The translations under genes were made by a program, and so were the position numbers. The notes under the pieces are model-generated. The model saw nothing but the letters and a program-made list of their open reading frames with translations, made no database searches and was not told where the DNA came from. This document shows positions 13,967 through 28,468 of a stretch of 64,000 nucleotides of DNA, piece by piece (the first letter of the stretch is position 1; each line of letters opens with the position of its first letter). The DNA is from Pseudomonadota bacterium (lineage in GTDB: Bacteria; Verrucomicrobiota; Verrucomicrobiia; Limisphaerales; SXTU01), in NCBI GenBank assembly GCA_009922615.1, contig RFVF01000006.1, positions 34,609-98,608 of the forward strand. The letters run 5' to 3'.

Positions 13967-16336
13967 TCACTCCTTCGGCACCTGATTCAGTGTGTAGTGC
14001 AGCGTGTCATTCCGCAGCGCGTCGCCCCGATTGTTCTTCAATTCCAGCGCGCGGAGCATGACGACGTGGCGCGGCTTCAGGCCTTCCACCGTCAGGCGCA
14101 CGGAGAGTTTGTCATCGGCCACGGCGGCGTGGGTTACGCGCACGGGCGGGCCGGGGATTTTCTCGTCGCGGTCTTTCTCGGGCGCGTTGTGCCTGCCGTC
14201 GTAGGCGTAGGTGTATTGTGTGGCGTCCCAGTTCTCGGCGTTGCCGGCGAGCGCGGCGTCCACGGGCTGAGTGAAGGCCACGACGAACCCATTCGCGCGT
14301 GCAGACACAGTCTTGAACTCGAAGGGCACGCGGCCTCGGAAGGTCACGCGATCAAGCGAGTGCGGCTGTGGCGCGATGTTCGTCCAGTGCCCGAAGCGCA
14401 GCCCGCCCACGTAGAGCCGCGAGTCCGGCCCGTAGGCCAGGCGGTTCACGCCGGAGGCAAAACCTTTCACGAGCGGAAACACCGCGCCCTGCCACTGGCC
14501 GTTCACCCGTTCCAGCGCGACGCGGAAGACGGCGGCATTTTGAAATTCGCCCACGAGCATCTGGCCCGCGAATGGCCCGAAGCGCGCGTCGCTCACGTTG
14601 GCGATGCCGCTGGCGGAGCGCACCCACGCGTAGGGAAACCACACGGCGGGCGGCGTGAAGTTGGTGTCGCCGTTGAATTGCGCGGGCGGTGCGGGCCACG
14701 CGCTGGGGTGGCCGTAGAAGTTGGTGAATTGCAGATGATTCAACTTGTTCGCCGCGATCCAGTGGCCCTGGTTGTCGGTCATGAAGAGGTCGCCGCGAAA
14801 TTCGCCAAAGCCATTGGGCACGCGCAGGCCGGAGCAGAAGGGATCGGTGCGCCAGGTGTCGGCGAAGGGAACTTCGCCGGTGTTGTTCGGATGCGGCGTG
14901 ATCTTCAGGCACCAGCCCATGCCGGTAATCTCGGGCATGGTGCGATGGCCCGTGATCAACGCGCCGAGCACACCGCTCTCATCCACGAGCGGCCCGGTGG
15001 CGAAGGAATGATAATTCCCCGTGTAGCCCCAGGCGTCGCTGACGCACTCGAAAACATCCGCCACGCCGTCGCCATCGGTGTCGCGCAGGCGCGTGAGCTC
15101 GCACTTTTGCATCACGTAGATTGCGCCGCCCACGACGCGCAGGCCGCCGGGTTCGTTCAAGCCGCTGGCGTAACGATGCCACTTCGCGGCCTTCGGATCG
15201 TCGGCCGTGCCCTCGATGAGGAAGACGTCGCCTTGATACGTGGCGATGGCGAGATTGCCGTCGGGCAAAAAATCCATGCCGGCGACGGTGAGTTTGAGTT
15301 CCTTGGGAATGGGAAAATGTTCGATGGCGTAGAAGTCATCGCCGCCGGGAGTGTCAGAAAAATTTGGGTCCGGCAGAAAGACGGGCGCGGGGTTCGTGAC
15401 TTTCGCCGGTGTGGGCAAGGGCTTCAACGGGCCGGCGAGTTGCTTCGCCAGCGCGCTCGCGGTGTTCAGGTCCGCACAGAGCGCCGTCGCGATTTCAAAC
15501 GTCTGGGATTGTTCGCTCGGGGCGATGGCGACGCGCAACGAGACCTTGCGACCGGCGACGGAGTTGGTGAGCAGCGCGGAGTAGGGCCCTTTGCCATCGC
15601 GTTCGCTGACGAGGAATTCCGTGACCGGCGCGGTGGATACGAGCGGTATGAAACTGCCGCCCGGCAACCCGCGCAGCACGGCAACGAGCACGCCCGCCGG
15701 GGTGCGAATGCCCTGCGCGCCGGACGCGCCGAGGAGGTTGACGGGATCGCCGGGTTCGTCGTGCGCGTTGAAGCGGACGCGGCGCGTGAGCGGAGCGATT
15801 TCAAAGCGGCGGATGATGACGGCGTGCTCGCCGACGCGTTCCAGCCGAGGCGATTCAATGACGCCGACGGACGGATCACCCGGTGGAAACAATTCATAGA
15901 CGAAGGCCGTCGCGCCACCGCGTGTGCTGTGGCCCTTGAAGCGCGTGAGTGGGCCGTCCGCTTCCGCCGTCACGGCGTCGAAGGACCACGGACTCCGCGC
16001 GAGGCTGCCCCAGAGCCGCGTGCCGGTGATGTCGCACACGAAGCGCGCGGCGGTGCCGGTGTAGGGCGGGCCGTAGAGATTCAGCGGTTCGCCCTGCCAG
16101 ACGGTGTGCGTGCGGAGCAGGAGAGCATCGAAGGCGAGGTGAACATTCGTGGCCAGCGGCACCACGATGCTCCGGCTGGACTGGGCCATCGGAGCACGGC
16201 GGAAGGGGAGATCGGGGGCGTCGTGCGCGGCGGGGAGAGCGGCCGGTGCAGCGGGCTTTTGCGGGATTTGCGCCGGAGCTGACGCGACCAACCCGGCGGA
16301 GAGCACCGTCAACAGGAAGTTCAATGGATGCCGCAT
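13967..16336 (-). CDS. Secreted beta-propeller protein of the Pirellula/Verrucomicrobium 'putative membrane-bound dehydrogenase' type, without a heme domain (paralog A)
   Basis: ATG at 16336 (MRHPLNFLLTVLSAGLVASAPAQ signal). Contains QKCELTRLRDTDGDGVADVFECVSDAWG. Has a C-terminal Ig-like module. It is clearly paralogous to 37823-40111 and to the C-terminal half of 40958-44494. No CxxCH was seen. Confidence 0.7.
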   Translation of the reverse strand: MRHPLNFLLTVLSAGLVASAPAQIPQKPAAPAALPAAHDAPDLPFRRAPMAQSSRSIVVPLATNVHLAFDALLLRTHTVWQGEPLNLYGPPYTGTAARFVCDITGTRLWGSLARSPWSFDAVTAEADGPLTRFKGHSTRGGATAFVYELFPPGDPSVGVIESPRLERVGEHAVIIRRFEIAPLTRRVRFNAHDEPGDPVNLLGASGAQGIRTPAGVLVAVLRGLPGGSFIPLVSTAPVTEFLVSERDGKGPYSALLTNSVAGRKVSLRVAIAPSEQSQTFEIATALCADLNTASALAKQLAGPLKPLPTPAKVTNPAPVFLPDPNFSDTPGGDDFYAIEHFPIPKELKLTVAGMDFLPDGNLAIATYQGDVFLIEGTADDPKAAKWHRYASGLNEPGGLRVVGGAIYVMQKCELTRLRDTDGDGVADVFECVSDAWGYTGNYHSFATGPLVDESGVLGALITGHRTMPEITGMGWCLKITPHPNNTGEVPFADTWRTDPFCSGLRVPNGFGEFRGDLFMTDNQGHWIAANKLNHLQFTNFYGHPSAWPAPPAQFNGDTNFTPPAVWFPYAWVRSASGIANVSDARFGPFAGQMLVGEFQNAAVFRVALERVNGQWQGAVFPLVKGFASGVNRLAYGPDSRLYVGGLRFGHWTNIAPQPHSLDRVTFRGRVPFEFKTVSARANGFVVAFTQPVDAALAGNAENWDATQYTYAYDGRHNAPEKDRDEKIPGPPVRVTHAAVADDKLSVRLTVEGLKPRHVVMLRALELKNNRGDALRNDTLHYTLNQVPKE

Positions 16337-16407
16337 GGACGCAGCGTAGCCCGGCGGGCTTGGGCGGCGAGCGGGAAGTGAGGCCGATGGCGAGGTTGAC
16401 GGCGCGA

Positions 16408-16428
16408 ACTTTGCACTTTGAAGTTTCC
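16408..16428. repeat. Tandem heptamer (ACTTTGC ACTTTGA AGTTTCC) in the divergent region upstream of the GrpE-like gene
   Basis: Read directly. 16408-16422 is the reverse complement of 5861-5875. Confidence 0.7.
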
Positions 16429-16452
16429 GCGTTCGCCGTAACCTCCGCCGCC

Positions 16453-17292
16453 ATGAGTGACCGACCCGAGACACGTCTCGCCCGCTGGCCGTCCGTCCTG
16501 CCGTTCCTGATCGGCGCGGCGGCGCTGGATTATGCCGCTTGGTGGGTGGTGGAGAAGAGCGATCACCCCATCAACATCTGGATGGCGGTGTTGGCGCTGG
16601 TGGCGGTCGGCGGAGCCGCGTGGGTTTCGGTGATGCCGTTTCTGACGGATGCCGCGAATGCCACGAAGCTGGAGGAGTTGGAGAAGCTTCAGTCCACGGC
16701 GAATCAAATTCAAAACCTGGAGAAGATCGCCACCCAAGTCACCATCGCCACCGCGCAGTGGCAGAACGTGCAGGAGCACAACACCAAGGCGATCGACGCC
16801 GCGAAGCAGGTGTCCGATGAAATGACGCAAGAGGCGTTGCGCTTCGGCGAGTTCATGAAGAAGGCCAACGACTCCGAGAAGGCCACGCTGCGGCTCGAAG
16901 TCGAGAAGCTGAAGCGCGCCGAGACGGACTGGCTCCAAGTGCTCGTGCGCGTCCTGGATCACGTTTACGCGCTGCACCGCGCGGGCAAGCATTCCGGCCA
17001 GCAAAACTTGATCGACCAACTGGCGCATTTTCAAAACGCCTGCCGCGATGCGGCGCGTCGCATTGGGCTCGTCGCGTTCGCCCCGGCAGCGGGGGACGGT
17101 TTCGAGCCGGGGCAGCATCAGACGGCGGATGGGCGCAAGGATATTCCGGAGGATGCCAAGATTTTTGAGACAGTGGCCACGGGCTACACCTTCCAAGGCC
17201 AGATGCTCCGGCCTGCGTTGGTAATGCTCGAAGCGCCCAAGGCTCCGCTTCCCGTTGTTGCGCCCGAAACGGACGCCGTTGCGGAGCAATGA
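16453..17292 (+). CDS. Two-TM membrane protein with a coiled coil and a C-terminal GrpE-like nucleotide-exchange-factor domain
   Basis: Hydrophobic segments WPSVLPFLIGAAALDYAAWWVV and IWMAVLALVAVGGAAWVSVMPFL, followed by heptad-rich helices. Then LVRVLDHVYAL...IGLVAFAPAAGDGFEPGQHQTA...TVATGYTFQGQMLRPALVML, matching the GrpE signature (G-x-x-F-D/E-P-x-x-H ... G-Y-x-x-x-x-x-x-L-R-P-A-x-V). An alternative in-frame ATG lies at 16387. Confidence 0.6.
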   Translation: MSDRPETRLARWPSVLPFLIGAAALDYAAWWVVEKSDHPINIWMAVLALVAVGGAAWVSVMPFLTDAANATKLEELEKLQSTANQIQNLEKIATQVTIATAQWQNVQEHNTKAIDAAKQVSDEMTQEALRFGEFMKKANDSEKATLRLEVEKLKRAETDWLQVLVRVLDHVYALHRAGKHSGQQNLIDQLAHFQNACRDAARRIGLVAFAPAAGDGFEPGQHQTADGRKDIPEDAKIFETVATGYTFQGQMLRPALVMLEAPKAPLPVVAPETDAVAEQ

Positions 17293-17391
17293 TTTGCTGA
17301 GTTGAACACGCGCGTGTTGCGGCAAAGTTGCTTCGCGGAGCAATGACGGTTGGGCGTTTGACCGGGACCGTTTAGTTTAACGGCAAAGCTT

Positions 17392-18930
17392 GTGGCACAA
17401 ATTCCTCAACCGATCCTCTTTGGCCTCGAGACCGAATACGGCATCGCGCGGGACGGCGTGGAGGACTTGGACGTGGTGGCGGAATCCATCGCACTGGTGC
17501 GCAGCGCCATGGAGCCGGGCGTGCGGATGCGCTGGGATTATGAGGCCGAGAACCCTCACCACGACGACCGCGGTTGGGACGTGCCCGAGCTGCGGCAGGA
17601 CTTCGACGAGGCGGACTACTTCGAGCAGGACACGCATCGCGAGCTGACCTTTGCCGAGATCAAGAGCGACCTCGCGCTCGGCAACGGCGCGCGCTTCTAC
17701 AACGACCATGCCCACCCGGAATACTGCACGCCCGAGTGCTCCACGCTCGCCGAGCTGGTCGCGCACGACCGCGCGGGCGAGCGCGTGGTGATGGCCTGCG
17801 CCCAGCGGCTTTCCAAGGCGCGCGGCGCAACGGTCCGACTCTACAAGAACAACACCGACTTCCGCGGCCACAGCTACGGCTGCCACGAGAATTACCTGCT
17901 GCCCCGCGCGCTGCCGTGGGAACGGCTGGCGGCAGGGGCGCAGGCGTTTCTTGTCACGCGGCAAATCTTTGCCGGCGCGGGCAAGTTCGCCATCGAGGCG
18001 GAGGACAAGTTCGTCTCGCCGCATTTCCAAATCGCCCAGCGAAGCGACTTCTTCAGCGAGTTGCAGAGCGTGGACACGATGCAGAAGCGCCCGCTCATCA
18101 ACACTCGCGACGAGCCGCACGCCGACCCGTGCCAGTGGCGGCGCTTCCACGTCATCATCGGCGACGCGAACCTTTCACCCTTCGCCACGCGCCTGAAGGT
18201 GGGCACCACCGCGCTGATACTTGAAGCCATCCTCCGCGACCCGAAGCGCATCTTCCCCGAGCTCGCCGACCCGCTCGACGCCCTGCCTGCCATCTCGCGC
18301 GACGCGCGCCATCGCTGGGAAGTGAAGCTGGCGAACCGCCGACCTTCCACCGCACTCGCCGTCCAGCGCGACTACCTCGCGGCGGCGAAGGAACTCTGTG
18401 ACTTGTCCGCGCCGGAGCGCGCCGCACTCGTAGTCGATTGGGAAGCCGTGCTGAACGATCTCGAAGCCGACGCCATGCGTTGCCGCGACCGGCTGGACTG
18501 GGTCGCCAAGCTCGCGCTCATCCGCGAGTTTCAAGCCGCCCAAGGTCTCGCAGACGACGACCCGTGGCTGCAAAGCCTCGACCTCGAATACCACCGGCTC
18601 GACTTCGACGCGGGGCTTTACTTCGGCTTGGAGCAGTCGGGCACGATGCGTGGCGTGCCGCCGGAAGCCGCCGTCCATCGCGCGATGTTCGAGCCGCCGG
18701 AGACCACGCGTGCGCTCATCCGGGGCAAGCTCATCCAGAAGTTTTCCGCCGCCGTGCTCTCGGCGCAGTGGGACCATGTCACGCTCGCTTGCGGCGACGG
18801 CGAGTTGAAGGTGTCGCTGCTGGAAATGTTCGCGCCGGAGCGCATCGCGTTCACCGCTCAGGCCATCGCCGCGTCAAATTCACCGGCAGAATTGCGCGAG
18901 CGCCTTTTTCGTGCCACTGTCCGTCAGTAA
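17392..18930 (+). CDS. Pup-ligase/deamidase family enzyme (Dop/PafA homolog; Dop-like by synteny)
   Basis: ILFGLETEYGI, NGARFYNDHAHPEYCTPEC, LYKNNTDFRGHSYGCHENYLL, FLVTRQIFAGAGKF. It lies immediately upstream of the tag gene, as dop does in actinobacteria. GTG start. Confidence 0.85.
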   Translation: MAQIPQPILFGLETEYGIARDGVEDLDVVAESIALVRSAMEPGVRMRWDYEAENPHHDDRGWDVPELRQDFDEADYFEQDTHRELTFAEIKSDLALGNGARFYNDHAHPEYCTPECSTLAELVAHDRAGERVVMACAQRLSKARGATVRLYKNNTDFRGHSYGCHENYLLPRALPWERLAAGAQAFLVTRQIFAGAGKFAIEAEDKFVSPHFQIAQRSDFFSELQSVDTMQKRPLINTRDEPHADPCQWRRFHVIIGDANLSPFATRLKVGTTALILEAILRDPKRIFPELADPLDALPAISRDARHRWEVKLANRRPSTALAVQRDYLAAAKELCDLSAPERAALVVDWEAVLNDLEADAMRCRDRLDWVAKLALIREFQAAQGLADDDPWLQSLDLEYHRLDFDAGLYFGLEQSGTMRGVPPEAAVHRAMFEPPETTRALIRGKLIQKFSAAVLSAQWDHVTLACGDGELKVSLLEMFAPERIAFTAQAIAASNSPAELRERLFRATVRQ

Positions 18931-18934
18931 CACT

Positions 18935-19108
18935 ATGCCCGACCAAGCCCAGAAAACCCGCCCGGTGACACCCAGCCCCAGCGGCGGCGGGGGCGACGGC
19001 CCCAGCGCGCCCAAGGTGGACAAGCCCAATGTCGAGGAACTCCTCAAGCGCATGAAGAAGGTGGACCCCGACCAGGCGAAGCGCTACCGCCAGCGCACCG
19101 GGCAATGA
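18935..19108 (+). CDS. UBact/Pup-like small protein modifier (57 aa) ending in RTGQ
   Basis: MPDQAQKTRPVTPSPSGGGGDGPSAPKVDKPNVEELLKRMKKVDPDQAKRYRQRTGQ has a disordered N-terminus, a basic helical C-terminus and a C-terminal Gln. It starts 4 nt after the dop-like stop. Its stop overlaps the prcB-like start (ATGA). Confidence 0.75.
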   Translation: MPDQAQKTRPVTPSPSGGGGDGPSAPKVDKPNVEELLKRMKKVDPDQAKRYRQRTGQ

Positions 19109-19875
19109 GCGCTACCCCGCAAATCTCCGGCGACTTCGTTTCGCTGCTCGCCTCGCATAACCTCGCGCCGCTGCGGGTGGACGCCACGCACGCGGCGCCG
19201 GTCGAGACGCAGGCCACCACGGTCTTTGCCTTCCATTTCGCCGATGGCGTGCTGATGGCAGGCGACCGGCGGGCGACGGCGGGCAACGTCATCGTCACCG
19301 ACCGCGTTGAGAAGGTCATCGAGCTGGACGCGCACTCGCTGCTGGCCATCGCGGGCGTGCCGGCGACGGCGTTCGAGATGGCGCGCGTGCTGCAAACGTC
19401 CTTCGAGTATTACCGCCGCAGCCAGCTCCAGTCGTTGAGCCTCCCGGCGAAAGTCCGCGCTCTCGCCCGCCTGCTCCGCGACAACCTGCCGATGACCATG
19501 CAAGGCGTCGGCGTGGTGGTGCCGCTCTTCGCTGGCGTGGACACCACGACGCAGCCGGCCAAGCCGCAGATTTTCTTCTACGACCCGCTGGGCGCGCAGT
19601 TTCAAGCGGTCGGCTATGCGACGAGCGGCTCGGGTTCGCAGACCATTCGCAGCGTGCTGAGTTATCAGGAGCGCTACGGCCAGCCGCGTCCGTCGGAGAT
19701 GACCTTGCCCCAAGCCGTGCAATTTGCGCTGCGCTTGCTGATGACGGCCTCGGAGTTTGATTCAGCCACCGGCGGCGTGCGGCCAGACACACTGGCCTTC
19801 GCGACGCTTAAGGTGCTGCGGGCGTCCGGTGTGGAGACGATTTCCGACGCGCAGCAGGCGGAGTGGCTCGGGTAG
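19105..19875 (+). CDS. prcB: Proteasome beta subunit (PrcB-like) with propeptide
   Basis: ...QA|TTVFAFHFADGVLMAGDRRATAGNVIVTDRVEKV... closely resembles mature PrcB (TTIVAL..GGV.MAGDRR.T.GN.I). Equivalents of Thr1, Asp17 and Lys33 are present. Confidence 0.8.
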   Translation: MSATPQISGDFVSLLASHNLAPLRVDATHAAPVETQATTVFAFHFADGVLMAGDRRATAGNVIVTDRVEKVIELDAHSLLAIAGVPATAFEMARVLQTSFEYYRRSQLQSLSLPAKVRALARLLRDNLPMTMQGVGVVVPLFAGVDTTTQPAKPQIFFYDPLGAQFQAVGYATSGSGSQTIRSVLSYQERYGQPRPSEMTLPQAVQFALRLLMTASEFDSATGGVRPDTLAFATLKVLRASGVETISDAQQAEWLG

Positions 19876-19952
19876 GACGAATGCCGGCGACTTCCATTCG
19901 CGGCCGGTGGAAAACAGCAGGACAGAGGTGCTCGCCAAGCCAACCTGCAACG

Positions 19953-19971
19953 CGGCGGCTGGAAGCCGCCG
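19953..19971. terminator. GC hairpin between convergent genes (possible bidirectional terminator, no U-tract)
   Basis: cggcggc-tggaa-gccgccg, a 7-bp stem. It lies in the 120-nt gap between prcB-like and the convergent propeller gene. Confidence 0.25.
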
Positions 19972-19995
19972 ACACGAGGTTGGGTTCGCTCGCAA

Positions 19996-21219
19996 CTACT
20001 TCACCTTCACGCAGACCAAGTCCCCGCGCGCATTGCGGCAATAGACTTTTGCATCCGCCAGGACCGGGACGGTCCAGCAGCGGCCACCGAGGACTTGGTG
20101 CCGGGCCGTGGCTTTGAAGCCCGTGGGCGTGGCCGGAGCGGCCAACATCTCCCCGCGCTCACTGAGAATCAGCAGCGTCCCGTCCGCAGTGGCCATCAGG
20201 GAGCCGCAGCCGAGGCCGTCGCTGGCGGGCACGCGCCACTTTTCCTTGCCGCTTGCGAATTCGAGGCAAACGAATTCTGTGGGCCGGCCGCGATGTGCGG
20301 TGCCATCGAAACCGTAGAGGTGGCCTTCGAGCAGCACGGAGTTGTTCATGTGGTTGCACATGGCCTTGTGCTCGTAGCGCGGCTTAAGCGCGCTGCCGTT
20401 CAGCTCGAACAGCGCACAGCCCCGGTCGTAGCCGGTTGAGATGAAGATGAGCCCATCGTGGACGATGGGCGTGGTCGCGGTGGTGTCGAAGGAAGTTTTC
20501 CACGGCGTGGTGGCGATGGTCTTGCCGCTCGTGGCGTCGAGCACGGTCAGGCCCTCGGCCTTCATCACCGCAACGAGTTTCCGCTCGCCGGACGCGAAGG
20601 CCGTTGGCGTGCCATAAGCGGGTGTGAACGGTTCACCCTTCCATTTCACGCGGCCTGTGGCGGGGTCGAGCGCAAACGTCGGGCCGGCTTCGATGAGCAG
20701 CGTGTCGTCGCTGAGGAAATACGGTGAGCAGGCGAAACCCCATTCGGGTGGCGCGTCCAGCCCGGCTTCGGCCATCATGTCGCGCTGCCAGACGAGCTTG
20801 CCAGTCGCGGCCTCGTAGCAGTGCAGGCGGCCGTGTTTGCTGTAAGTGAAGACCTTGCCGCCGCGCACCGTGGGCGTCGCGCCGGGGCCGCCTTCGTAGA
20901 ATCGATCTATGAGCGGGGCCGGGTAGCTGTGTTTCCAAACCTCCTTGCCGGTCGCGCCGTCGAAGCACCACACCGTTTCGTCACCGCCGCTCTTCGCCCC
21001 GTTGTGGCCCATCGTGAAGACGCGCCCGTCTGCGATGGCCACGGAGGAAAAACCGACACCGACCTTCTTCTGCCACAAGGTTTCGGTGAAGTCCGGCCTA
21101 GCCGGCAGGCGCTCAGTGGAAATGCCGTCTTCGTTCGATCCGCGCCACTGCGGCCAATCAGCCGCCAAAACGGTCCATGTGTTCAGGAACAACAGGGCGA
21201 GCAGACGATGGCAGTGCAT
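19996..21219 (-). CDS. PQQ-like / BamB-like beta-propeller repeat protein, secreted
   Basis: The ATG at 21219 gives MHCHRLLALLFLNTWTVLAADWPQWRG (the typical DWPxWRG start of PQQ-like repeat proteins), followed by repeated ...G.V....G.L.a.da.tGk..W blades. The longer ORF-track start would overlap the peroxiredoxin gene. Confidence 0.8.
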   Translation of the reverse strand: MHCHRLLALLFLNTWTVLAADWPQWRGSNEDGISTERLPARPDFTETLWQKKVGVGFSSVAIADGRVFTMGHNGAKSGGDETVWCFDGATGKEVWKHSYPAPLIDRFYEGGPGATPTVRGGKVFTYSKHGRLHCYEAATGKLVWQRDMMAEAGLDAPPEWGFACSPYFLSDDTLLIEAGPTFALDPATGRVKWKGEPFTPAYGTPTAFASGERKLVAVMKAEGLTVLDATSGKTIATTPWKTSFDTTATTPIVHDGLIFISTGYDRGCALFELNGSALKPRYEHKAMCNHMNNSVLLEGHLYGFDGTAHRGRPTEFVCLEFASGKEKWRVPASDGLGCGSLMATADGTLLILSERGEMLAAPATPTGFKATARHQVLGGRCWTVPVLADAKVYCRNARGDLVCVKVK

Positions 21220-21263: not shown

Positions 21264-21899
21264 TTACTTGTTCGGCTGCGGCGTGTAACGGAGGTAGGGT
21301 TTCACCTTCCGCGCGCCCTTGGGGAACAGCGCCGGGATTTCCTCGTCCTTCACCGCGAGCGTGATGATGCAGTCCTGCCCATCCTTCCAGTCGGCCGGCG
21401 TGGCCACTTTGTGCTTGGCTGAGAGCTGGAGGGAGTCCACGACGCGCAGGATTTCCATGAAGTTGCGCCCGCACGACATCGGGTAGGTGAGCGTGAGCTT
21501 CACCTTCTTGTCCGGCCCGATGACGAAGACGGAGCGCACAGTGGCCTTGTCGTCCATGTTCGGGTGAATCATGTCGTAAAGCGCGGCGACGGTTTTTGCG
21601 GGGTCGGCGATGATCGGAAAATTCATCGTGGTGCCCTGAGTTTCGTTGATGTCCTTGACCCAACCGTGGTGGGACTCGACCGGGTCCACGGACACGGCGA
21701 TGCACTTGACGTTGCGCTTGGCGAACTCGTCCTTGAGCTTGGCGACCGCGCCCAGCTCAGTGGTGCAGACGGGCGTGTAGTCGGCGGGATGGGAGAAGAG
21801 GATACCCCAGCCGGTGCCGAGCCACTGATGGAAATCAATGCGGCCTTCGGTGGTGTCGGCCTGAAAGTTCGGAGCGAGGTCGTTAAGTCGGAGTGCCAT
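21264..21899 (-). CDS. 1-Cys peroxiredoxin (Prx6-like)
   Basis: MALRLNDLAPNFQADTTEGRIDFHQWLG..WGILFSHPADYTPVCTTELG. Confidence 0.9.
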   Translation of the reverse strand: MALRLNDLAPNFQADTTEGRIDFHQWLGTGWGILFSHPADYTPVCTTELGAVAKLKDEFAKRNVKCIAVSVDPVESHHGWVKDINETQGTTMNFPIIADPAKTVAALYDMIHPNMDDKATVRSVFVIGPDKKVKLTLTYPMSCGRNFMEILRVVDSLQLSAKHKVATPADWKDGQDCIITLAVKDEEIPALFPKGARKVKPYLRYTPQPNK

Positions 21900-22006: not shown

Positions 22007-23461
22007 TTATCCGAGAATGTCCTTCACCACATGGCCATGCACGTCGGTAAGGCGATAGTCGCGGCCTTGGAAGCGGAAGGTCAACTTCTCATGGTCAAAG
22101 CCAAGCTGGTGCATGATCGTGGCCTGCAAGTCGTGGACGTGGACCTTGTTCTCCACGATGCCGAAGCCGAGCTCATCGGTCTCGCCATAACTAAAGCCCT
22201 TCTTGATGCCCGCGCCGGCGAGCATGAGCGAATAGCAGTCAGGGTAGTGATCGCGCCCGAGCACCTGGCCGCCCGCCGTGCGGCCCTCGCGGAAGGGCGT
22301 GCGCCCGAACTCGCCGCCCCAGACGATCAGCGTGTCGTCGAGCAATCCACGCTGCTTCAAGTCCTCGATCAACGCCGTCACGGGCTTGTCCGTCCGCGCC
22401 ATTTTGTTCGTCAGGCCGCCGCGAATGTCCTCGTTCGGGCCGGTCCCGTGGAAGTCCCAGCCCCAGTCAAAGAGCTGCACGTAGCGCACGCCCTGCTCGA
22501 CGAGTCGGCGCGCGAGCAGGCAGTTGTTCGCGAAGCTCGCCTCGCCGGGCTTCGCGCCGTAGGCCTCCAGCAGCGCGGCGGGTTCCCGCGAAATGTCCAT
22601 GACTTCGGGCACGCTCGTCTGCATGCGGAAGGCGAGTTCGTATTGCGCGATGCGTGTCGCGGTCTCGGGATTGCCCAGCTCGCGCGACTGCTCCTCGTTC
22701 AACTCGCGCAACGTGTCGAGCGTGCGCCGGCGCATCTCGCGGTCCATGCCGGGCGGGTTGGAAACGTAGAGCACCGGGTCACCCTTCGAGCGGCACTGCA
22801 CGCCTTGATAAACGGAGGGGAGAAAGCCGCTGCTCCAGCAGCTTTGGCCGCCGCTGGGTTGCACGCCGCTACTGATGAGCACGACGAAACCGGGAAGATT
22901 TTCGTTCTCCGTGCCGAGGCCGTAAGTCGCCCACGTGCCCATGCTGGGCCGCCCTTGCCGTGCGGAGCCAGTGTAGAGCAGCAGTTCGGCGGGCGCGTGG
23001 TTGAACTCGTCCGTGGTCATGGACTTGATGACCGTGATCTCGTTGGCCACGCGCGGGAGGTTGGTGAGCGCGTCGGACATCCAGATGCCACCCCGCCCGT
23101 GCTGCGCGTAGTTGCGCGGCGTGCCCATGAGCTTCGGCACGCCGGAGGTGAACGCGAAGCGACGGCCTTTCAGGAACTGATCGGGGCAATCCTGCCCGTT
23201 GCGCTTCACCAGCTCGGGCTTGTAGTCGAAAATGTCCAAATGCGGCGGCGCACCGCTCATGTGCAGGTAGATGACACGTTTGGCCTTCGGCTCGAAATGC
23301 GGCGAGCGCGGCGCGAGCGGACGCGACGGGTCGGTCGGCTCGGCAACGGCCTTCGTGCCGACCAACGCCTCCATCGCAATCGCGCCCAGGCTGAACTGCC
23401 CGGCGCTGCGCAGGAACGTGCGGCGGGTTTGGTGCTGGAGTCGGAGGAGGTGGGGATTCAT
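22007..23461 (-). CDS. DUF1501 family protein (sulfatase-like fold), Tat signal
   Basis: QTRRTFLRSAGQFSLGA signal, ...FDWGWDFHG..., ...VWGGEFGRTP...GRDH. It pairs with the DUF1549/DUF1553 gene upstream. Confidence 0.85.
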   Translation of the reverse strand: MNPHLLRLQHQTRRTFLRSAGQFSLGAIAMEALVGTKAVAEPTDPSRPLAPRSPHFEPKAKRVIYLHMSGAPPHLDIFDYKPELVKRNGQDCPDQFLKGRRFAFTSGVPKLMGTPRNYAQHGRGGIWMSDALTNLPRVANEITVIKSMTTDEFNHAPAELLLYTGSARQGRPSMGTWATYGLGTENENLPGFVVLISSGVQPSGGQSCWSSGFLPSVYQGVQCRSKGDPVLYVSNPPGMDREMRRRTLDTLRELNEEQSRELGNPETATRIAQYELAFRMQTSVPEVMDISREPAALLEAYGAKPGEASFANNCLLARRLVEQGVRYVQLFDWGWDFHGTGPNEDIRGGLTNKMARTDKPVTALIEDLKQRGLLDDTLIVWGGEFGRTPFREGRTAGGQVLGRDHYPDCYSLMLAGAGIKKGFSYGETDELGFGIVENKVHVHDLQATIMHQLGFDHEKLTFRFQGRDYRLTDVHGHVVKDILG

Positions 23462-23517: not shown

Positions 23518-23871
23518 TCAGGGAGTTGTTTTCGTCGGGGAAGAGTCGGTTGCTTCGGTGGTGCGCTTGTTCCGCGACAGGTCGAACGGCAGGAGAACCG
23601 TGTCCAGCGCCGCCGAAAAGGGCAGGTCCAGTATGTTCATGAATTGCAATGACGGTTTATCCGCCAGTTGCGGGTTGGCCAGGTAATGAGCGTTACCTTT
23701 TACACCGGCATACGGTTCGGGCGCGCTCCCATTTGTCCGCATACCAATGGCAGCACAGCCCGTTAAACTCAAGAGACACGCGCCGACAAACAGCCCGATT
23801 CCAACACCAGCAGTGTCCGAATGTTCACCACGGAAAACTGAAAACTGAAAACTGAAAACTCGCCTTTTCAT
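23518..23871 (-). CDS. Small lipoprotein, YceK/YidQ-like (tentative)
   Basis: Lipobox LSLTGC. The ...YAGVKGN...LDLPFSAALDTVLLPFD motif resembles the YceK family. The ATG overlaps the upstream stop (ATGA at 23868-23871). Confidence 0.55.
   Translation of the reverse strand: MKRRVFSFQFSVFRGEHSDTAGVGIGLFVGACLLSLTGCAAIGMRTNGSAPEPYAGVKGNAHYLANPQLADKPSLQFMNILDLPFSAALDTVLLPFDLSRNKRTTEATDSSPTKTTP
23833..23860. repeat. Perfect tandem heptamer (GAAAACT)x4 in the first codons of the lipoprotein gene
   Basis: Read directly. It encodes ...VFSFQFSVFR... on the minus strand. Confidence 0.9.
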
Positions 23872-26800
23872 CGCTTCATCAACGCTTCATCCAAGTTCAG
23901 CAGCACATTCGCCACGGTCGTCCAGGCGGCGAGGTCGGCGGGTTCCATCTTGTCGCGCAGCGGGCCGAGCGGATCGGTTGCGAGGGCGATGGCTTTGTCC
24001 TTGTCCTTGAGAAACTCCGTGCGTGCGTCGTCGTGCAGCTTCACGAGCTTGGACAGTTCGCTCGCGGTCGGCGGACGCGCGACCAGGCGGCGGAAGGCGT
24101 AGCGCGCCTTGTCGGCGTCGGTCGAGCCGCCTTCGCTCGTGAGGTTGCGCGCAAGCGCCTGCGCGGCCTCCACGTAAACCGGATCGTTCATCGTCACCAG
24201 TGCCTGCAACGGCGTGTTCGTGCGGTTGCGGCGCAGCGAACAGGCCTCGCGGCTTGGCGCGTCGAACGTGGCCATCGAGGGATACGGGCTGGTGCGCCGC
24301 CATTCGGTGTAGAGGCCGCGCCGGTAGCGGTCCTCGCCGGTGCTCGTGGTCCAGTCCAGCCCGCCGCCGAACGCCGCGTTCAAGCCCATGCTCGGGCGCG
24401 TGGGGCGCACGCTGGGGCCGAACATCTTCGCACTGAGCAATCCGCTCGCGGCGAGCGCCTGATCGCGCACCATCTCGGCGGTGAGCCGCAGCCGCGGGCC
24501 GCGCGAGAGCAGGCGGTTCTCCGGGTCCTTCTCCAACGCCTCGGGCGTGACTTTCGAGGACTGGCGGTAGGCTTGCGACGTAACGATCAAGCGGAGGAAT
24601 TGCTTCGTATCCCATTTCATCGCGACTAGCTCGGTGGCCAGCCAGTCGAGCAACTCCGGGTGTGTGGGCAACTCGCCTTGCGCGCCGAACTCCTCGCTCG
24701 TGCGCACGAGGCCAGTGCCAAAAATCGCTTCCCAGTAGCGGTTCGCCACGACGCGCGCGGTGAGCGGGTTGTTCTCGTCCACGAGCCACTTGGCGAGCGT
24801 GAGGCGGTTGCGCGGCGCGTCCTTCGGCAACGGATGCCACGCGGCCGGCACGGCGGCGGTGACTTCCTCGCCGAGGTTCTGCCAGTTACCGCGAATCTGC
24901 ACCTGCGTCTTGCGCTGTTTGTCAGCGGCCAACTCGCGGTAGATGGGCACGGTCATCGGTTTGAGGTCGGCGAGCGATTTGGTGAGCGCAGCGAACTGCG
25001 TGCGCTCTGACTTTAACTCCGGTGCGAGGTTGCGCGCGAAGTAGTCCACGACCTTCGCACGGTCGCCCGGCGGAAGAGCATTCAGTGTCCAGTTTTCAGC
25101 GTTCAGTGAGCGGCTGCTGGCCAGCGTGGAAACAATCGCCGCCGGCGTGCGCGCGAACTCGGCGGCCTGCGCGTCCGCCGTCACGCCGAGACGGAAGTGA
25201 CCGAGCGTGGCTTTCGCGGTGGTGGACTGCTGTTCCAGCGTGACGGAGACGCGGGAGCCGGCGGGAAGCTCGACCGGCTTGTCCGCGATGAGTGTGAGCG
25301 TGTGCGGCTTGCCGGTTGCGCCGCCGACGGCCCAGCCGCGCGTGCGGTCGCGCTTCGGCACGTCGTCGTGCAGCACGTTGTCGGCGTCGAAGTTCGCCTG
25401 GGTGAAGTCCGCGAGAGCCGTGCTGAACTTGATTTCCCGCGCGCCGTTCATGGCGAACGCCAGGTCTTTCTTCGGCGCGTCGTTGCCGGCCTTGTCCCAC
25501 ACCACGTTGCGCTGCGCATCGAGCGCGACCACACGGAAGCCTTTCAATCGCTCGCCGGCCTCGGCGCGATTCCACACCACGATGCGCTCCAGCGCGCGCG
25601 CCTCCTTCAAGTCCACCTCCCACCACGGATTATCCTGCGCCTCGGTGTGGGCGACCGAACCTTTGTCGTATTCGCCATCGGTTTTGCCATCAATCGCGCG
25701 CGCTGCGGCCGCACCCATGTAAGTGCTGCTCTGCTTGGCCTCGCCCTTGAGCGCAATGTTCTCGCCGCCGCTGAAGACCTGCACCTCGGCGAGTTGCAGA
25801 AATTGGTTCTTCGCGGGCAGCTCGATGCGCACGAAGCGCCCGACCGGGCCCTTGCTCTCGGCGGGCGGCAGCACGCTGGCACGCACGCGCGTGACGACGA
25901 AGTTGCCGCCCGCGTGACCGGGGCCTTTGCCGGGCAGCTTGTCGTTCGGCAATGCTTCGAGCCGCAGTGCCGTGAGCTTCTGTGCGTCGGTCAAGGTCAG
26001 CTCCACGGTGAAATTATCCTTGGCCGCGTCGTTCTTGGCGACGACCACGCTGCCGTCGTCCTGCGCCGCGAGCGCGGCCCCGGAAGTGGCTTTCGCTACG
26101 CTGGGCTTGGGGGAAGTCCAGTCGAGCTTCACGGGGAACGACTGCGCCCACTTGTCTGCCGCCGCGATGACCGCCGGAGACGGCGACTTCAGCTTCGACT
26201 CGATCGCCGCGAGTTCAGTTTCCCACTTCGTGCGTTGCTGCTTTTGCTCCTCGGTGAAGAACGAGAGCAGCGGCGACTCGTCGCGCTTGTCGGCGTCCTC
26301 GGTCTGGTTGAGGAACGCGAAGAGCTGGTAATACTCCTTCTGCGCGATGGGATCATATTTGTGCGTGTGACACTGCGCGCACGCCATCGAAGTGCCCATC
26401 CACACGGCGAAGGTCGTGTTCACGCGGTCCACGACGGCGACATTGCGGAACTCCTCGTCGTTGGTGCCGCCCTCGTTGTTCGTCATCGTGTTGCGATGGA
26501 AAGCTGTGGCCTTGAGCTGATCGTCGGTCGGATTTTCGAGCAAGTCGCCAGCGAGCTGCTCGATGGTGAATTGATCGAACGGGAGGTTCTTGTTGAACGC
26601 GCTGATCACATAATCGCGGTAGGCCCAGATCGTGCGCGGCGGGTCGTCCGCGTAACCCGCGCTGTCCGCGTAACGCGCCAGATCGAGCCACAGCCGCGCC
26701 CAATGCTCGCCGTAGCTGGGCTTGGCGAGCTGTAAATCCACAAAGCGCTCATAAGCCTTCGGCGCCTGATCTGCGACGAACGCGTCCACCTCCGCCACGC

Positions 26801-27470
26801 TCGGCGGTAAGCCGGTCAAGTCCAGCGCCACGCGCCGCGCGAGCGCGTAACGATCGGCCTCGGGTTGTGGGAGCAGACCATCCTGCGCCAGTCGGCGGAG
26901 GATGAAGACGTCGATTGGGGAGGAGTAATTAGCGATTAGTGATTGAGTCCGAGGCCCGACCGATCTTTCGCCGGTCTTCGTGAGCAGGTTACTAATTACT
27001 TCCTTACTGATCACTGGCACCGTCGGCCGCTTTGGCTTCTCGTAAGCCCAGTGCCCGGACATCTTCGCCCCCGTTTGCACCCACGCGGTCAGCAGCTCCA
27101 CCTCGCGCGCCGTGAGTTGCTTGCCGAACTTCTTCGGCGGCATCACATCGTCGGCGTCCTTCGTCGTGACGCGCTGAAGCAAGAGGCTTTTCTGTGGCTG
27201 GCCCGCGACAATCGCCCGGCGGCCGTCGCCGAGATCTGCGGTGAGCCCATCCGCCGTGTCCACCCGGAAGCCCACGCCCTTTTTGCCGCCCTTGCGTTCT
27301 TTCTCATCCGGCCCGTGGCAGGCGAAGCACTTGTCCGACAAAATCGGGCGGATGTCCCGTTGGAAATCCGGAGCCAGCGGAGCATTCGGGGCCGGGGCCG
27401 CTACCAGCACGCCCACGGCGCACATCCAACCCGCACAACCCACAGGTATCAGCGTTCGCTTCATACTCAT
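23868..27470 (-). CDS. PSCyt1 (CxxCH) - DUF1549 - F5/8 type C (discoidin) - DUF1553 multidomain protein
   Basis: CFACHGPDEKERKGG, ...MPPKK..., CAQCHTHKYDPI (DUF1549 core). The discoidin-like block is AKQSSTYMGAAAARAIDGKTDG...NPWWEVDL...VWNR. The DUF1553-like C-terminus has ...FDAPSREACSLRRNRTNTPLQAL. I prefer the start at 27470/27464 (MSMKRTL). Confidence 0.85.
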   Translation of the reverse strand: MSMKRTLIPVGCAGWMCAVGVLVAAPAPNAPLAPDFQRDIRPILSDKCFACHGPDEKERKGGKKGVGFRVDTADGLTADLGDGRRAIVAGQPQKSLLLQRVTTKDADDVMPPKKFGKQLTAREVELLTAWVQTGAKMSGHWAYEKPKRPTVPVISKEVISNLLTKTGERSVGPRTQSLIANYSSPIDVFILRRLAQDGLLPQPEADRYALARRVALDLTGLPPSVAEVDAFVADQAPKAYERFVDLQLAKPSYGEHWARLWLDLARYADSAGYADDPPRTIWAYRDYVISAFNKNLPFDQFTIEQLAGDLLENPTDDQLKATAFHRNTMTNNEGGTNDEEFRNVAVVDRVNTTFAVWMGTSMACAQCHTHKYDPIAQKEYYQLFAFLNQTEDADKRDESPLLSFFTEEQKQQRTKWETELAAIESKLKSPSPAVIAAADKWAQSFPVKLDWTSPKPSVAKATSGAALAAQDDGSVVVAKNDAAKDNFTVELTLTDAQKLTALRLEALPNDKLPGKGPGHAGGNFVVTRVRASVLPPAESKGPVGRFVRIELPAKNQFLQLAEVQVFSGGENIALKGEAKQSSTYMGAAAARAIDGKTDGEYDKGSVAHTEAQDNPWWEVDLKEARALERIVVWNRAEAGERLKGFRVVALDAQRNVVWDKAGNDAPKKDLAFAMNGAREIKFSTALADFTQANFDADNVLHDDVPKRDRTRGWAVGGATGKPHTLTLIADKPVELPAGSRVSVTLEQQSTTAKATLGHFRLGVTADAQAAEFARTPAAIVSTLASSRSLNAENWTLNALPPGDRAKVVDYFARNLAPELKSERTQFAALTKSLADLKPMTVPIYRELAADKQRKTQVQIRGNWQNLGEEVTAAVPAAWHPLPKDAPRNRLTLAKWLVDENNPLTARVVANRYWEAIFGTGLVRTSEEFGAQGELPTHPELLDWLATELVAMKWDTKQFLRLIVTSQAYRQSSKVTPEALEKDPENRLLSRGPRLRLTAEMVRDQALAASGLLSAKMFGPSVRPTRPSMGLNAAFGGGLDWTTSTGEDRYRRGLYTEWRRTSPYPSMATFDAPSREACSLRRNRTNTPLQALVTMNDPVYVEAAQALARNLTSEGGSTDADKARYAFRRLVARPPTASELSKLVKLHDDARTEFLKDKDKAIALATDPLGPLRDKMEPADLAAWTTVANVLLNLDEALMKR
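26924..27015. repeat. Low-GC, inverted-repeat-flanked segment lying in frame inside the DUF1549/DUF1553 gene
   Basis: agtaattagcgattagtgattgag ... ctaattacttccttactgatcact. It encodes ISKEVISNLLTKTGERSVGPRTQSLIAN. The paralog at 47220 has about 19 fewer residues at this position. Confidence 0.55.
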
Positions 27471-27586
27471 CAGCGGAATACTTAGTTGACCATCGCAATC
27501 ACGAGCTTGGACGGCTATTGCGGCCGGACGATTGACTAATTGCGAGGCAATTTTCAGCGCTGGCTCTTCAGCGGAAACCTCCGCCA

Positions 27587-28468
27587 TCATTTCGCGTTGG
27601 GCGTGCCCTCGAACTTCAGCAACACCTCGGCGAAGCGCCGGCCCACGTCCAGCGTGCCGGCGGAATCCCAGTGCGCGCTGTTCGCGATGGTTGCGCCCGC
27701 CGTGTCCACGTAGGCGCAACGCGGGTCCTTCGCGGCGAGCGCTTGCTGCGCCTCTACAATCTTCGGCATGAAGGCGTTCTTGCCGCCGCCGAACTGCGTG
27801 TTGACGGCCACGAGCGCGATGAGCTGCGGCGCGTTGAGGTCCTTGCGCAGCGCGGCAATCATGTCGCCCAGCGCCTGCGTGTAGCGCGGGGCGGACGTGG
27901 CGTTTGCGTCACTCTCGCCCTGCACCCACGCGAGCGCGCGTGGGCGCAGCGTGATGCCCTGCGCCTTCGCGGCGGCGAGCGCGGCCTTCGTCTCCGCTAC
28001 GAGCGCGCGGTAGCACGAGCCGCCGGGGCCGGCGTCGGCGGGGTTCCAATCCTGCGCCATGCCTGTGCCGCTCCACGCGGCCTTCACCACGGCGAGCGGC
28101 TTCTTCTCCTTCGCAAACAGCGCGCGGGCGAAACCCATCTCTGGACCGAAGCCGCCGGCCGCACCGGAGAAGTTCCCGTATTGGCGCGCCATCTTGCCTT
28201 TCTCCATCGGCGTGCCCTTGGGCTGCGCTTGCAGCGCGGTGAGCCACTTGCCACCGCTGGTGGTGTCGTGCTCATCCGGCGGCGGGTCGCCCGCGCGGAA
28301 CCAAAACATGACCTGCTTGTCAGCGTCATCGGCGGGCAAGTCGGACGGCTTAGCGTCGTAGCCCACGGCATTCGACTGGCCGGCGATGAGGAGCAGGTCG
28401 CGCGTCTCCGCAGCGGGGGCTGAACCACAGAGGACACAGAGAGCACAGAGTAGAGAGAAGCGTTTCAT
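27587..28468 (-). CDS. Sialate O-acetylesterase-like (SASA/DUF303) carbohydrate esterase, secreted
   Basis: Signal peptide MKRFSLLCALCVLCGSAPA from the ATG at 28468. GQSN motif (LLIAGQSNAVGY). ...WVQGESDA... Confidence 0.75.
   Translation of the reverse strand: MKRFSLLCALCVLCGSAPAAETRDLLLIAGQSNAVGYDAKPSDLPADDADKQVMFWFRAGDPPPDEHDTTSGGKWLTALQAQPKGTPMEKGKMARQYGNFSGAAGGFGPEMGFARALFAKEKKPLAVVKAAWSGTGMAQDWNPADAGPGGSCYRALVAETKAALAAAKAQGITLRPRALAWVQGESDANATSAPRYTQALGDMIAALRKDLNAPQLIALVAVNTQFGGGKNAFMPKIVEAQQALAAKDPRCAYVDTAGATIANSAHWDSAGTLDVGRRFAEVLLKFEGTPNAK
28426..28452. repeat. Tandem nonamer (CACAGAGNN x3) encoding the LCA-LCV-LCG core of a signal peptide
   Basis: cacagagga cacagagag cacagagta was read directly. 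The 9-nt period keeps the frame. Confidence 0.7.

Follow-up and report, generated by a model that had tools for sequence, protein, structure and literature searches.

A dop-ubact-prcB locus beside a GrpE-like gene in Limisphaerales, probably one fragment of a scattered UBact-proteasome system

Genes of the locus

The window, i.e. the whole 64-kb stretch of DNA that was analysed, harbours a dop-ubact-prcB locus preceded by a GrpE-like gene (Table 1). These four genes are co-directional and tightly packed, with a first gap of 99 nt, a second of 4 nt and then an ATGA overlap. A convergent PQQ_2/BamB-like gene comes next and closes the transcription unit. The gene layout given in the preliminary description was borne out. 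The convergent gene is found where prcA and pafA come next in canonical loci, and it is a neighbour common to loci L011, L154 and L183. For the GrpE-like gene, automated calling placed the start at an upstream ATG (16324). We preferred the start at 16453 because the homologues are 270-300 residues long.

On the left, the DUF7133/GSDH-like gene is 83.5% identical at the nucleotide level to, and syntenic with, a gene on contig 4 of the sister genome WRPG01 (L185), which likewise precedes a GrpE-like gene. It forms the left flank of the GrpE-like locus and lies outside the UBact system. On the right, the AhpC/peroxiredoxin gene is in synteny with sister dop loci: its counterparts in L013, L014, L015, L050 and L091 occupy the same place and share 89-92% identity with it. 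A promoter and terminator scan of positions 16000-20200 yielded nothing usable, and no promoter-like or terminator-like site was detected in the 99-nt spacer. The Rfam search of the window returned tRNAs only.

Table 1. Features of the dop-ubact-prcB locus and its flanks (positions in the window)
Feature	Position	Strand	Profile match or remark
DUF7133/GSDH-like gene, divergent	13967..16189	-	Pfam DUF7133, 29 bits
GrpE-like gene, predicted membrane-anchored GrpE-fold protein, 279 aa	16453..17292	+	Pfam GrpE, 40.6 bits
Spacer between the GrpE-like gene and dop, 99 nt	17293..17391	.	Holds the rearrangement junction
dop, Dop-type deamidase/depupylase, 512 aa, GTG start	17392..18930	+	Pup_ligase, 478 bits
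ubact, UBact tag, 57 aa, C-terminus RYRQRTGQ	18935..19108	+	Pfam UBact, 83.4 bits
prcB, 20S proteasome beta subunit, 37-residue propeptide	19105..19875	+	Pfam Proteasome, 95 bits
PQQ_2/BamB-like beta-propeller gene, convergent	19996..21219	-	Pfam PQQ_2, 85 bits
AhpC/peroxiredoxin gene	21264..21899	-	Pfam families

Profile searches confirmed the families proposed beforehand for the four genes, namely GrpE-like, Dop-type, UBact and proteasome beta. The dop product combines the Pup_ligase fold with a Dop loop, which characterizes Dop-type deamidases/depupylases. It scored 427 bits with the NCBIfam model of Dop versus 324 bits with that of PafA. The alignment with the Dop structure 4b0r (334 bits) begins at residue 10 and takes in the Dop-loop region, whereas that with the PafA structure 4b0t (213 bits) does not begin before residue 90. 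The protein has the conserved DHAHPEY motif, and dN/dS values relative to sister species are 0.07-0.12.

The tag scored above the curated cut-offs of both the Pfam (PF20513; cut-off 27.8 bits) and NCBIfam (NF033388; 83.9 bits, cut-off 35) profiles. UBact-type tags end in Gly-Gln or Gly-Glu, and that of the window ends in RTGQ. Among 67 related tags, 55 terminate in RTGQ and 11 in RTGE, so that the Gln end noticed in the preliminary description is the norm. The protein is 93-100% identical to the copies found elsewhere in the sub-clade, except for an altered copy in L011, and its dN/dS is 0-0.16.

PrcB scored 153 bits with the NCBIfam model of the bacterial 20S beta subunit, below the cut-off of 191.9. 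Its best PDB matches are the PrcB proteins of Rhodococcus and M. tuberculosis, whose mature N-terminus aligns to T38. The catalytic Thr1, Asp17 and Lys33 correspond to T38, D54 and K70, respectively, and together with the propeptide they are the features of a 20S beta subunit. The QA/TTVF cleavage site, D54 and K70 are common to the window protein and 113 PrcB proteins of Verrucomicrobiota, with D54 and K70 invariant; dN/dS is 0.04-0.13. Within the sub-clade, selection on dop, ubact and prcB is strongly purifying (dN/dS 0.0-0.16). These low values and the intact catalytic residues indicate that all three are most likely functional genes.

UBact-proteasome genes in related genomes

We clustered the ORFs of 80 GTDB species-level loci. 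The ORFs of these loci were chosen by conservation; GC3-based calling missed the GrpE-like and PQQ genes. The order in most relatives is (WYL regulator)-mpa-dop-ubact-prcB-prcA-pafA. Profile searches identified the corresponding families (pup_AAA, 413 bits; 20S_bact_alpha, E=1e-14), and the second Pup_ligase gene of the relatives matches PafA end to end. Mpa is encoded upstream of dop in 52 of the 68 loci with enough flank, and UBact and PrcB are both present in 57 of 71. Downstream of PrcB, we found PrcA in 37 and PafA in 32 of the 45 loci with enough flank; both genes are missing there in 8 of these 45 species-level loci.

In metagenomes, 42 pafA loci had enough flank, 14 of which are contiguous and 28 split in several ways. 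UBact-proteasome genes of Verrucomicrobiota (Limisphaerales) are split over at least two loci as often as they are contiguous, and toxin-antitoxin and restriction genes are carried as cargo in the cluster spacers, which act as hot spots. As splitting is common in Limisphaerales, surveys based on gene clusters undercount complete systems, and 'lone beta subunit' or 'Dop-only' calls made on single contigs should not be taken as reduced systems. Splitting and loss of proteasome genes are also known in Actinobacteria.

Using the Mpa, PrcA, PafA and WYL regulator sequences of relatives as tblastn queries, we searched the 64-kb window for the missing components, and only dop itself was matched. No Mpa/ARC AAA ATPase with proteasomal OB domains (best E-value 0.44), no 20S alpha subunit and no PafA-type ligase were detected in the 64 kb, in agreement with the preliminary description.

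In the sub-clade to which the window belongs, the genes are arranged as mpa-(variable cargo)-dop-ubact-prcB. The mpa gene is located 0.4-1.8 kb upstream of dop in L011, L014, L015, L050/L091 and L097, and the Mpa proteins of five sister lineages share 93-96% identity with one another. The closest Mpa clusters (P0124, P0121 and P0251) correspond to the sister lineages L091, L096 and L097 only.

The PafA of the sub-clade could not be separated with a canonical relative as the query, and it was found by scanning metagenomes with the stand-alone PafA of CAZPVD01, the nearest outgroup assembly. In the latter, pafA is alone on contig 7, and dop-ubact-prcB-prcA is on contig 5. The scan revealed a distinct PafA clade, 86-100% identical within and 70% identical to the next best match, as well as a matching, sub-clade-specific PrcA clade. 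They are encoded together at a second locus, murJ/prcA-x-pafA, and never adjoin dop. Their assignment to the sub-clade is suggested by the matching pattern of divergence and by contig L154, in which the prcA-pafA locus is 4.5 kb from a ubact-prcB pair coding for proteins 100% (UBact) and 97.6% (PrcB) identical to those of the window. L154 is a single 29-kb metagenomic contig, which may be chimeric.

Based on these analyses, dop-ubact-prcB very probably represents a piece of an ordinary tagging and proteasome system of the UBact (Pup-like) type, whose genes are scattered over several loci in this sub-clade of Limisphaerales, and we infer that mpa, prcA and pafA are kept elsewhere in the source genome. 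An alternative is a genuinely reduced system, in which these three genes have been lost and a minimal module is left with Dop, UBact(Q) and a single PrcB, for example with a homo-oligomeric beta-only protease like HslV, Anbu or BPH and with Dop as the only tag enzyme. The absence of the three genes from the 64 kb, the 8 of 45 loci devoid of prcA and pafA downstream of prcB and the purifying selection on the remaining genes would fit such a module. Nevertheless, we consider it unlikely. The sister lineages have mpa beside dop and prcA-pafA at a second locus, and the cleavage site and catalytic residues of the window PrcB are the same as in the PrcB proteins encoded next to PrcA. Furthermore, a Gln-ended tag would have no conjugation route without PafA, because Dop has no ligase activity in the characterized system (Hecht et al. 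2021, PMC7947786).

The GrpE-like gene and its junction with dop

The GrpE-like protein matches the Pfam GrpE profile over model positions 8-162 of 165, above the cut-off of 25.8 bits. Residues ~14-33 and ~40-64 each form a hydrophobic segment, and the initial view of a two-TM protein with a GrpE-type domain holds. The AlphaFold2 model (mean pLDDT of 80) shows the GrpE fold, with a long helix, a four-helix bundle and a beta domain. The best 12 PDB matches in Foldseek are all GrpE structures, and the target TM-score with E. coli GrpE (1dkg_B) is 0.66. The protein therefore resembles the GrpE exchange factor of DnaK/Hsp70 in its predicted helical and C-terminal beta domains. In contrast with that factor, it has two predicted N-terminal transmembrane helices, and its scores with the NCBIfam GrpE equivalog models (19-29 bits) are far below their cut-offs (137-231). 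No dnaK, dnaJ or hrcA genes were found next to the GrpE-like gene in the seven contexts seen. It is a member of a separate family of membrane-anchored GrpE-fold proteins with wide conservation, present across Limisphaerales/Pedosphaera and normally unlinked to dop.

Among the species-level dop loci of Verrucomicrobiota, 71 extend for at least 1.2 kb upstream of dop, and none of these has a GrpE-like gene there. Likewise, homologues of the GrpE-like protein (46-88% identity) are encoded in five different, unrelated contexts (L005, L007, L009, L010 and L185), all devoid of dop, and one of these five relatives is a sister genome whose Dop is 94% identical to that of the window. The two genes are on different contigs within each of the WRPG01 and CAZPVD01 assemblies. 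The preliminary description had proposed to test whether their adjacency is conserved in related Verrucomicrobiota, which is not the case. It had also pointed out that mpa, prcA and pafA lying together elsewhere in the genome, with a GrpE-like gene not conserved beside dop in relatives, would speak against a new variant and for a trivially split canonical system. This is essentially what the sister genomes contain, and the comparative evidence favours the split.

The window is a fusion of two loci found on separate contigs in WRPG01, which explains why the GrpE-like gene adjoins dop. Its left flank (DUF7133 and GrpE-like genes) matches contig 4 of that genome, and its right flank, which runs from dop to PSCyt, corresponds to the dop loci of the sister species. 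DNA homology with six sister species begins only at position 17410, and the conserved 30-nt dop leader of the sister species is missing from the window. The breakpoint falls within the stretch formed by the 99-nt spacer and the first dop codons. The rearrangement set the GrpE-like gene beside dop, in replacement of the native mpa-(cargo)-leader region.

The junction is not unique to one genome, as RFSE01 (L183) has it too; this is the only other lineage in which it was found. Only the RFSE01 spacer shows homology to that of the window, which contains a 14-nt palindrome, AACACGCGCGTGTT, at 17305-17318 that the RFSE01 spacer lacks. As the two lineages have diverged by ~15% at the DNA level, the junction has persisted for some time. 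The flanks upstream of the GrpE-like gene differ between them. In neighbour-joining trees of dop and of prcB, RFSE01 branches off first within the sub-clade and the window falls inside the crown, whereas for the GrpE-like gene the window and RFSE01 go together (87% versus 83% nucleotide identity). This conflict points to recombination. The mpa-dop spacer is a general hot spot of insertion and rearrangement, with unrelated cargo in each sister species. The GrpE-like gene is a recent neighbour placed by rearrangement and not an evolutionarily conserved partner. This removes a tempting false lead, as its position next to dop is no sign of a conserved partnership.

Under a functional recruitment, the GrpE-like gene would be co-transcribed with dop-ubact-prcB in the window and RFSE01 lineages, and its product would tether tagging or degradation to the membrane or link it to Hsp70. 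The rearrangement would then have put the three genes under the transcriptional control of the GrpE-like protein, and the pairing would have been kept since the protein now serves tagging, e.g. for membrane localization of Dop or the proteasome or as a link to Hsp70 clients. The persistence of the junction in two divergent lineages despite their different upstream flanks is compatible with this idea. So is the spacer, given that no terminator-like site was found in it and that the loss of the native dop leader makes co-transcription possible. Both the recruitment in general and this scenario for its origin are nevertheless highly improbable. There is no co-occurrence signal between the two genes (0/71 dop loci; 5/5 independent GrpE-like contexts unlinked), the GrpE-like family occurs much more widely than its adjacency to dop, and the mpa-dop spacer receives unrelated cargo in each sister species. 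The membrane-tethered, reduced or rewired tagging envisaged in the preliminary description is therefore unsupported, the adjacency being absent from the 71 species-level relatives, found in one other lineage only and explained by the fusion of loci.

Comparison with known systems and proposed function

A UBact-proteasome gene cluster was described in Gram-negative phyla (Lehmann, Udasin, Livneh, Ciechanover 2017, BBRC 483:946, as cited in PMC5751360). The window has the same tag family, with an RTG(Q/E) terminus, and the same dop-ubact-prcB order with ubact and prcB tightly coupled; its relatives have the full mpa-dop-ubact-prcB-prcA-pafA set. In contrast with that cluster, the genes of the sub-clade are broken into at least two loci, with mobile cargo in the mpa-dop and prcA-pafA spacers, and in the window an unrelated GrpE-like gene takes the place of the upstream mpa. 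In the searchable literature, we found only passing mentions of UBact and no conjugation experiments.

With the actinobacterial Pup-proteasome system (Mpa/ARC, Dop, Pup, PrcB, PrcA and PafA), the window shares a Dop that can be aligned end to end with the solved Dop structure, Dop-loop region included, a PrcB closest to those of Rhodococcus and M. tuberculosis with Thr1, Asp17 and Lys33, and a Gln-ended tag. The differences are that the tag is UBact and not Pup, that Ala and not Gly precedes Thr1, and that no component reaches the cut-off of its NCBIfam equivalog model trained on Actinobacteria.

If tagging by the scattered UBact system follows the actinobacterial Pup paradigm, the Gln end of the tag implies deamidation before ligation. 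Dop would convert this residue to Glu, and a PafA-type ligase encoded elsewhere would join UBact to substrate lysines. A Mpa-type AAA ATPase, also encoded elsewhere, would recognize UBact and feed the substrate to a 20S particle consisting of the window PrcB and a PrcA encoded at another locus. Dop would also remove the tag.

That dop-ubact-prcB might instead be a non-functional leftover of a system being lost in this lineage, as the high fragmentation of the locus in the sub-clade (mpa-dop only in L097; ubact-prcB without dop in L154) and the altered UBact C-terminus of L011 could suggest, is hardly credible with three intact reading frames, their low dN/dS values, conserved catalytic residues and a UBact nearly identical across the rest of the sub-clade.

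The four-gene locus and its counterparts in Verrucomicrobiota

The positions and co-directional packing of the four genes reported in the preliminary description were borne out, and profile searches backed all four family names. The GrpE-like gene and dop are 99 nt apart, dop and ubact 4 nt apart, and ubact and prcB share an ATGA overlap. Within the ligase family, the enzyme is orthologous to Dop: its matches to the Dop model and to the solved structure 4b0r both outscore PafA and extend from residue 10 across the Dop-loop region. PafA identity was rejected on the basis of the lower score and of an alignment that begins only at residue 90. The window PrcB aligns with those of Rhodococcus and M. 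tuberculosis, with T38 as the mature Thr1 and with Asp17 and Lys33 present. The residue before the catalytic Thr1 is usually Gly; in Verrucomicrobiota PrcBs it is Ala, and QA|TTVF was found in about 95% of the proteins compared (that of the window and 113 related PrcBs). No further match to Mpa, PrcA, PafA or the WYL regulator was detected in the 64 kb by tblastn with queries from relatives, in agreement with the initial failure to see an AAA ATPase, an alpha subunit or a second ligase there.

A scan with the Dop protein, at one genome per species, yielded 80 Verrucomicrobiota loci (63-95% identity), whose conserved ORFs were clustered and the clusters then checked by profiles. Their commonest order is (WYL/HTH regulator)-mpa-dop-ubact-prcB-prcA-pafA, and the canonical order that the preliminary description expected is thus the usual arrangement in relatives. 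Of 68 loci with sufficient flank, 52 encode Mpa upstream of dop, 41 of them directly so, and UBact and PrcB follow dop in 57/71 loci. Where enough sequence lies downstream of PrcB (45 loci), 37 loci encode PrcA and 32 encode PafA. Conservation of the tag is extreme. Since it ends in RTGQ in 55/67 loci and in RTGE in 11/67, a Gln end is the norm for these tags.

In canonical Verrucomicrobiota loci such as L030 (15-17 of the 80 GTDB loci), a WYL/WCX/HTH regulator adjoins mpa upstream, and a Rho-like RNA-binding ATPase paralogue is encoded further upstream. Regulators of this kind are of the PafBC type, a type with a link to pafA in Actinobacteria. The UBact of the sister genome WRPG01 ends in ...KKVDPAAARIT, not ...DQAKRYRQRTGQ, in an otherwise intact locus; the cause is an assembly error or else a frameshift or pseudogene. 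Several public MAG records with a clearly Verrucomicrobiota locus (L015, L024, L030, L038, L050, L053; protein P0002) carry the titles Klebsiella sp., Klebsiella pneumoniae, Akkermansia muciniphila, Methylomirabilota, Haliangiales, Omnitrophota or Proteobacteria, probably through binning or labelling errors. Elsewhere in the window, ARAGORN and Rfam agree on two tRNA genes, and ARAGORN alone called a third.

Features of the window and of homologous loci (L numbers) from related genomes or metagenomes; L011 and L185 are the dop and GrpE-like loci of WRPG01
Feature	Location	Strand	Remarks
GrpE-like gene	16453-17292	+	Pfam GrpE 40.6 bits (cut-off 25.8), nearly entire model covered
Palindrome	17305-17318
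dop	17392-18930	+	GTG start; Pup_ligase 478 bits
ubact	18935-19108	+	UBact 83 bits (Pfam) and 84 bits (NCBIfam), both above cut-off
prcB	19105-19875	+	Proteasome 95 bits; top NCBIfam match, bacterial 20S beta model
Ala-Thr1 site	19213-19224		PrcB residues 37-40
PQQ_2 beta-propeller gene	19996-21219		Convergent to prcB; first gene after it
PSCyt/DUF1501 pairs	22007-23461, about 23868-27590, other sites; L185 10981-16867
tRNA-Ala(GGC), tRNA-Tyr(GTA)	1363-1438, 45415-45500		ARAGORN and Rfam
Second tRNA-Ala(GGC)	56469-56538		ARAGORN
dop leader	L011 9965-10000
UBact with altered end	L011 11400-11678
Regulator and Rho-like ATPase	L030 4982-6046 and 3813-4937
mpa-dop spacer cargo	L011 8198-9853
mpa-dop spacer cargo	L014 8122-9949
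mpa-dop spacer cargo	L050 8224-9969
mpa-dop spacer cargo	L097 11903-12977
MazF-like pair upstream of dop	L012 2631-3238
prcA-pafA spacer cargo	L154 8357-9979		Mrr restriction enzyme and PIN toxin
Retropepsin-like ORF	L183 10557-10973 (= L184 10419-10835)		138 aa

Dispersal of the mpa, prcA and pafA genes

The window locus is a genomically fragmented member of the known UBact/Pup-proteasome kind. Of the two alternatives initially proposed, a system split across the genome is supported both by the position of mpa in sister lineages and by a second locus harbouring prcA and pafA. In the window's sub-clade, defined by Dop proteins at least 89% identical to that of the window, L011, L014, L015, L050/L091 and L097 have kept mpa on the upstream side of dop. 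No prcA or pafA gene follows prcB in the dop loci of the sub-clade; the same convergent genes as in the window, ahpC or PQQ, close these loci. The nearest outgroup, CAZPVD01 (Dop 78% identical), has dop-ubact-prcB-prcA on contig 5 and a stand-alone pafA adjoining metH on contig 7.

A metagenome scan with this stand-alone PafA as the query returned 80 loci, 10 of which form a tight clade (86-100% identical internally, against 70% for the next best match) that has a matching PrcA clade. Their contexts are murJ|prcA-(insert)-pafA or pafA alone, never beside dop. Loci with dop-ubact-prcB but no prcA-pafA form one clade and loci with prcA-pafA but no dop another; the two are complementary and most simply belong to the same genomes. 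The link is one 29-kb metagenomic contig, L154, a member of the tight PafA clade, on which a prcA-Mrr-PIN-pafA block lies 4.5 kb from a ubact-prcB pair. Its UBact and PrcB are 100% and 97.6% identical to those of the window and its PQQ neighbour is the same; homology to the window stops at the 3' end of dop. From the sister lineages, we infer that mpa, prcA and pafA are present in the window's organism.

Splitting of the UBact-proteasome genes is a general pattern. The 42 metagenomic pafA loci with sufficient flank comprise 14 that are contiguous, 14 with ubact-prcB-prcA-pafA without dop, 4 with prcA-x-pafA, 9 with pafA alone and 1 with the L154 arrangement. The 14 dop-less loci match 13 mpa-dop-only loci in the genome set. 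Single-contig loci with a lone beta subunit should therefore not be taken as reduced systems.

The three genes are maintained, given their low dN/dS values within the sub-clade (dop 0.07-0.12, ubact 0-0.16, prcB 0.04-0.13) and a PrcB cleavage site and catalytic residues identical to those of the 113 relatives, most of which are encoded beside a PrcA. In the characterized actinobacterial system Dop has no ligation ability (Hecht et al. 2021, PMC7947786), which, together with the conserved Gln-ended tag, implies a PafA encoded elsewhere. By analogy with the Pup paradigm, UBact would serve in tagging and degradation.

The GrpE-like gene and the junction with dop

The GrpE-like protein has two hydrophobic helices at its N-terminus. 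Its AlphaFold2 model (mean pLDDT 80) matched only GrpE in the PDB, the best 12 matches all being GrpE, with a target TM-score of 0.66 for E. coli GrpE. The preliminary description alternatively proposed a rewired system coupled to this protein, and suggested checking whether its adjacency to dop is conserved. Among the relatives' dop loci, 71 have 1.2 kb or more of sequence upstream, and none of these contains the GrpE-like gene. Its homologues are common in Limisphaerales and Pedosphaera, and in five relatives (46%, 52%, 55%, 81% and 88% protein identity) they occupy unrelated sites with different neighbours in each. In CAZPVD01 it is on contig 3 and dop on contig 5, and in WRPG01, whose Dop is 94% identical to that of the window, they are on contigs 4 and 19, respectively. 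GrpE coupling is therefore not supported; it keeps a low probability in the two lineages that have the junction described below, because there is no terminator-like site between the two genes and the native dop leader has been lost.

The two-TM GrpE-fold proteins form a family conserved across Limisphaerales and Pedosphaera (window, L005, L007, L009, L010 and L185). They are always encoded by solitary genes whose surroundings vary, and none of the loci seen has dnaK or dnaJ next to the gene. The family scores far under the GrpE equivalog cut-offs, and this membrane-tethered GrpE paralogue may be worth a study of its own.

Two loci have been fused in the window. The left flank, with a DUF7133 gene and the GrpE-like gene, matches contig 4 of WRPG01 (83.5% DNA identity), and the right flank, starting with dop, corresponds to the dop loci of six sister species. 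The latter homology starts at 17410, 18 nt inside dop, and the 30-nt leader that precedes the sisters' dop start codon is missing. This leader, with a tandem CCGTGTTYCAT repeat (alignment A1; L011, with equivalents in L012, L013, L014, L015 and L097), is conserved directly before dop in the six species despite divergent sequence further upstream in each. The window, L050 and the RFSE01 lineage lack this leader, which may be a regulatory or translation-initiation element.

One other lineage, RFSE01 (GCA_009924135.1), also represented by scaffold_90 from the same sample as the window's contig, has the same junction and a homologous spacer, with ~85% DNA identity across the common GrpE-like-to-dop block. 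Such a distribution makes the junction older than a single strain, yet it is confined to a shallow group. In the dop and prcB trees the window groups with the other sister species and RFSE01 is the earliest branch of the sub-clade, whereas in the GrpE-like gene tree the window groups with RFSE01; this conflict points to recombination. Pairs of paralogous PSCyt1/PSCyt2/PSD1 and DUF1501 genes, of a type known from Planctomycetes, occur several times, flanking the dop locus in the window and the GrpE-like locus in WRPG01; recombination between such pairs could plausibly have fused the two loci. Located 13 nt past the GrpE-like stop codon, a perfect 14-nt palindrome, AACACGCGCGTGTT, falls inside a 24-nt segment missing from RFSE01; no T run follows it.

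Insertions in the UBact cluster

The mpa-dop gap of the sisters ranges from 0.4 to 1.8 kb and holds different cargo in each, including a DnaJ-like gene on the opposite strand, ParD/ParE-type pairs and a 581-aa ORF. In L012, dop is immediately preceded by a MazF-like pair, and mpa was not found in the 3.5 kb of upstream sequence available there. The intergenic sites of the cluster behave as insertion hot spots, and these analyses describe its plasticity in Verrucomicrobiota. In the RFSE01 lineage, an ORF for a retropepsin-like aspartyl protease, seen in no other locus examined, separates dop from ubact. The ORF contains a DTGA motif and scores barely above the cut-off for Pfam Asp_protease_2 (25.9 bits), with a possible resemblance to eukaryotic Ddi1-type proteases.
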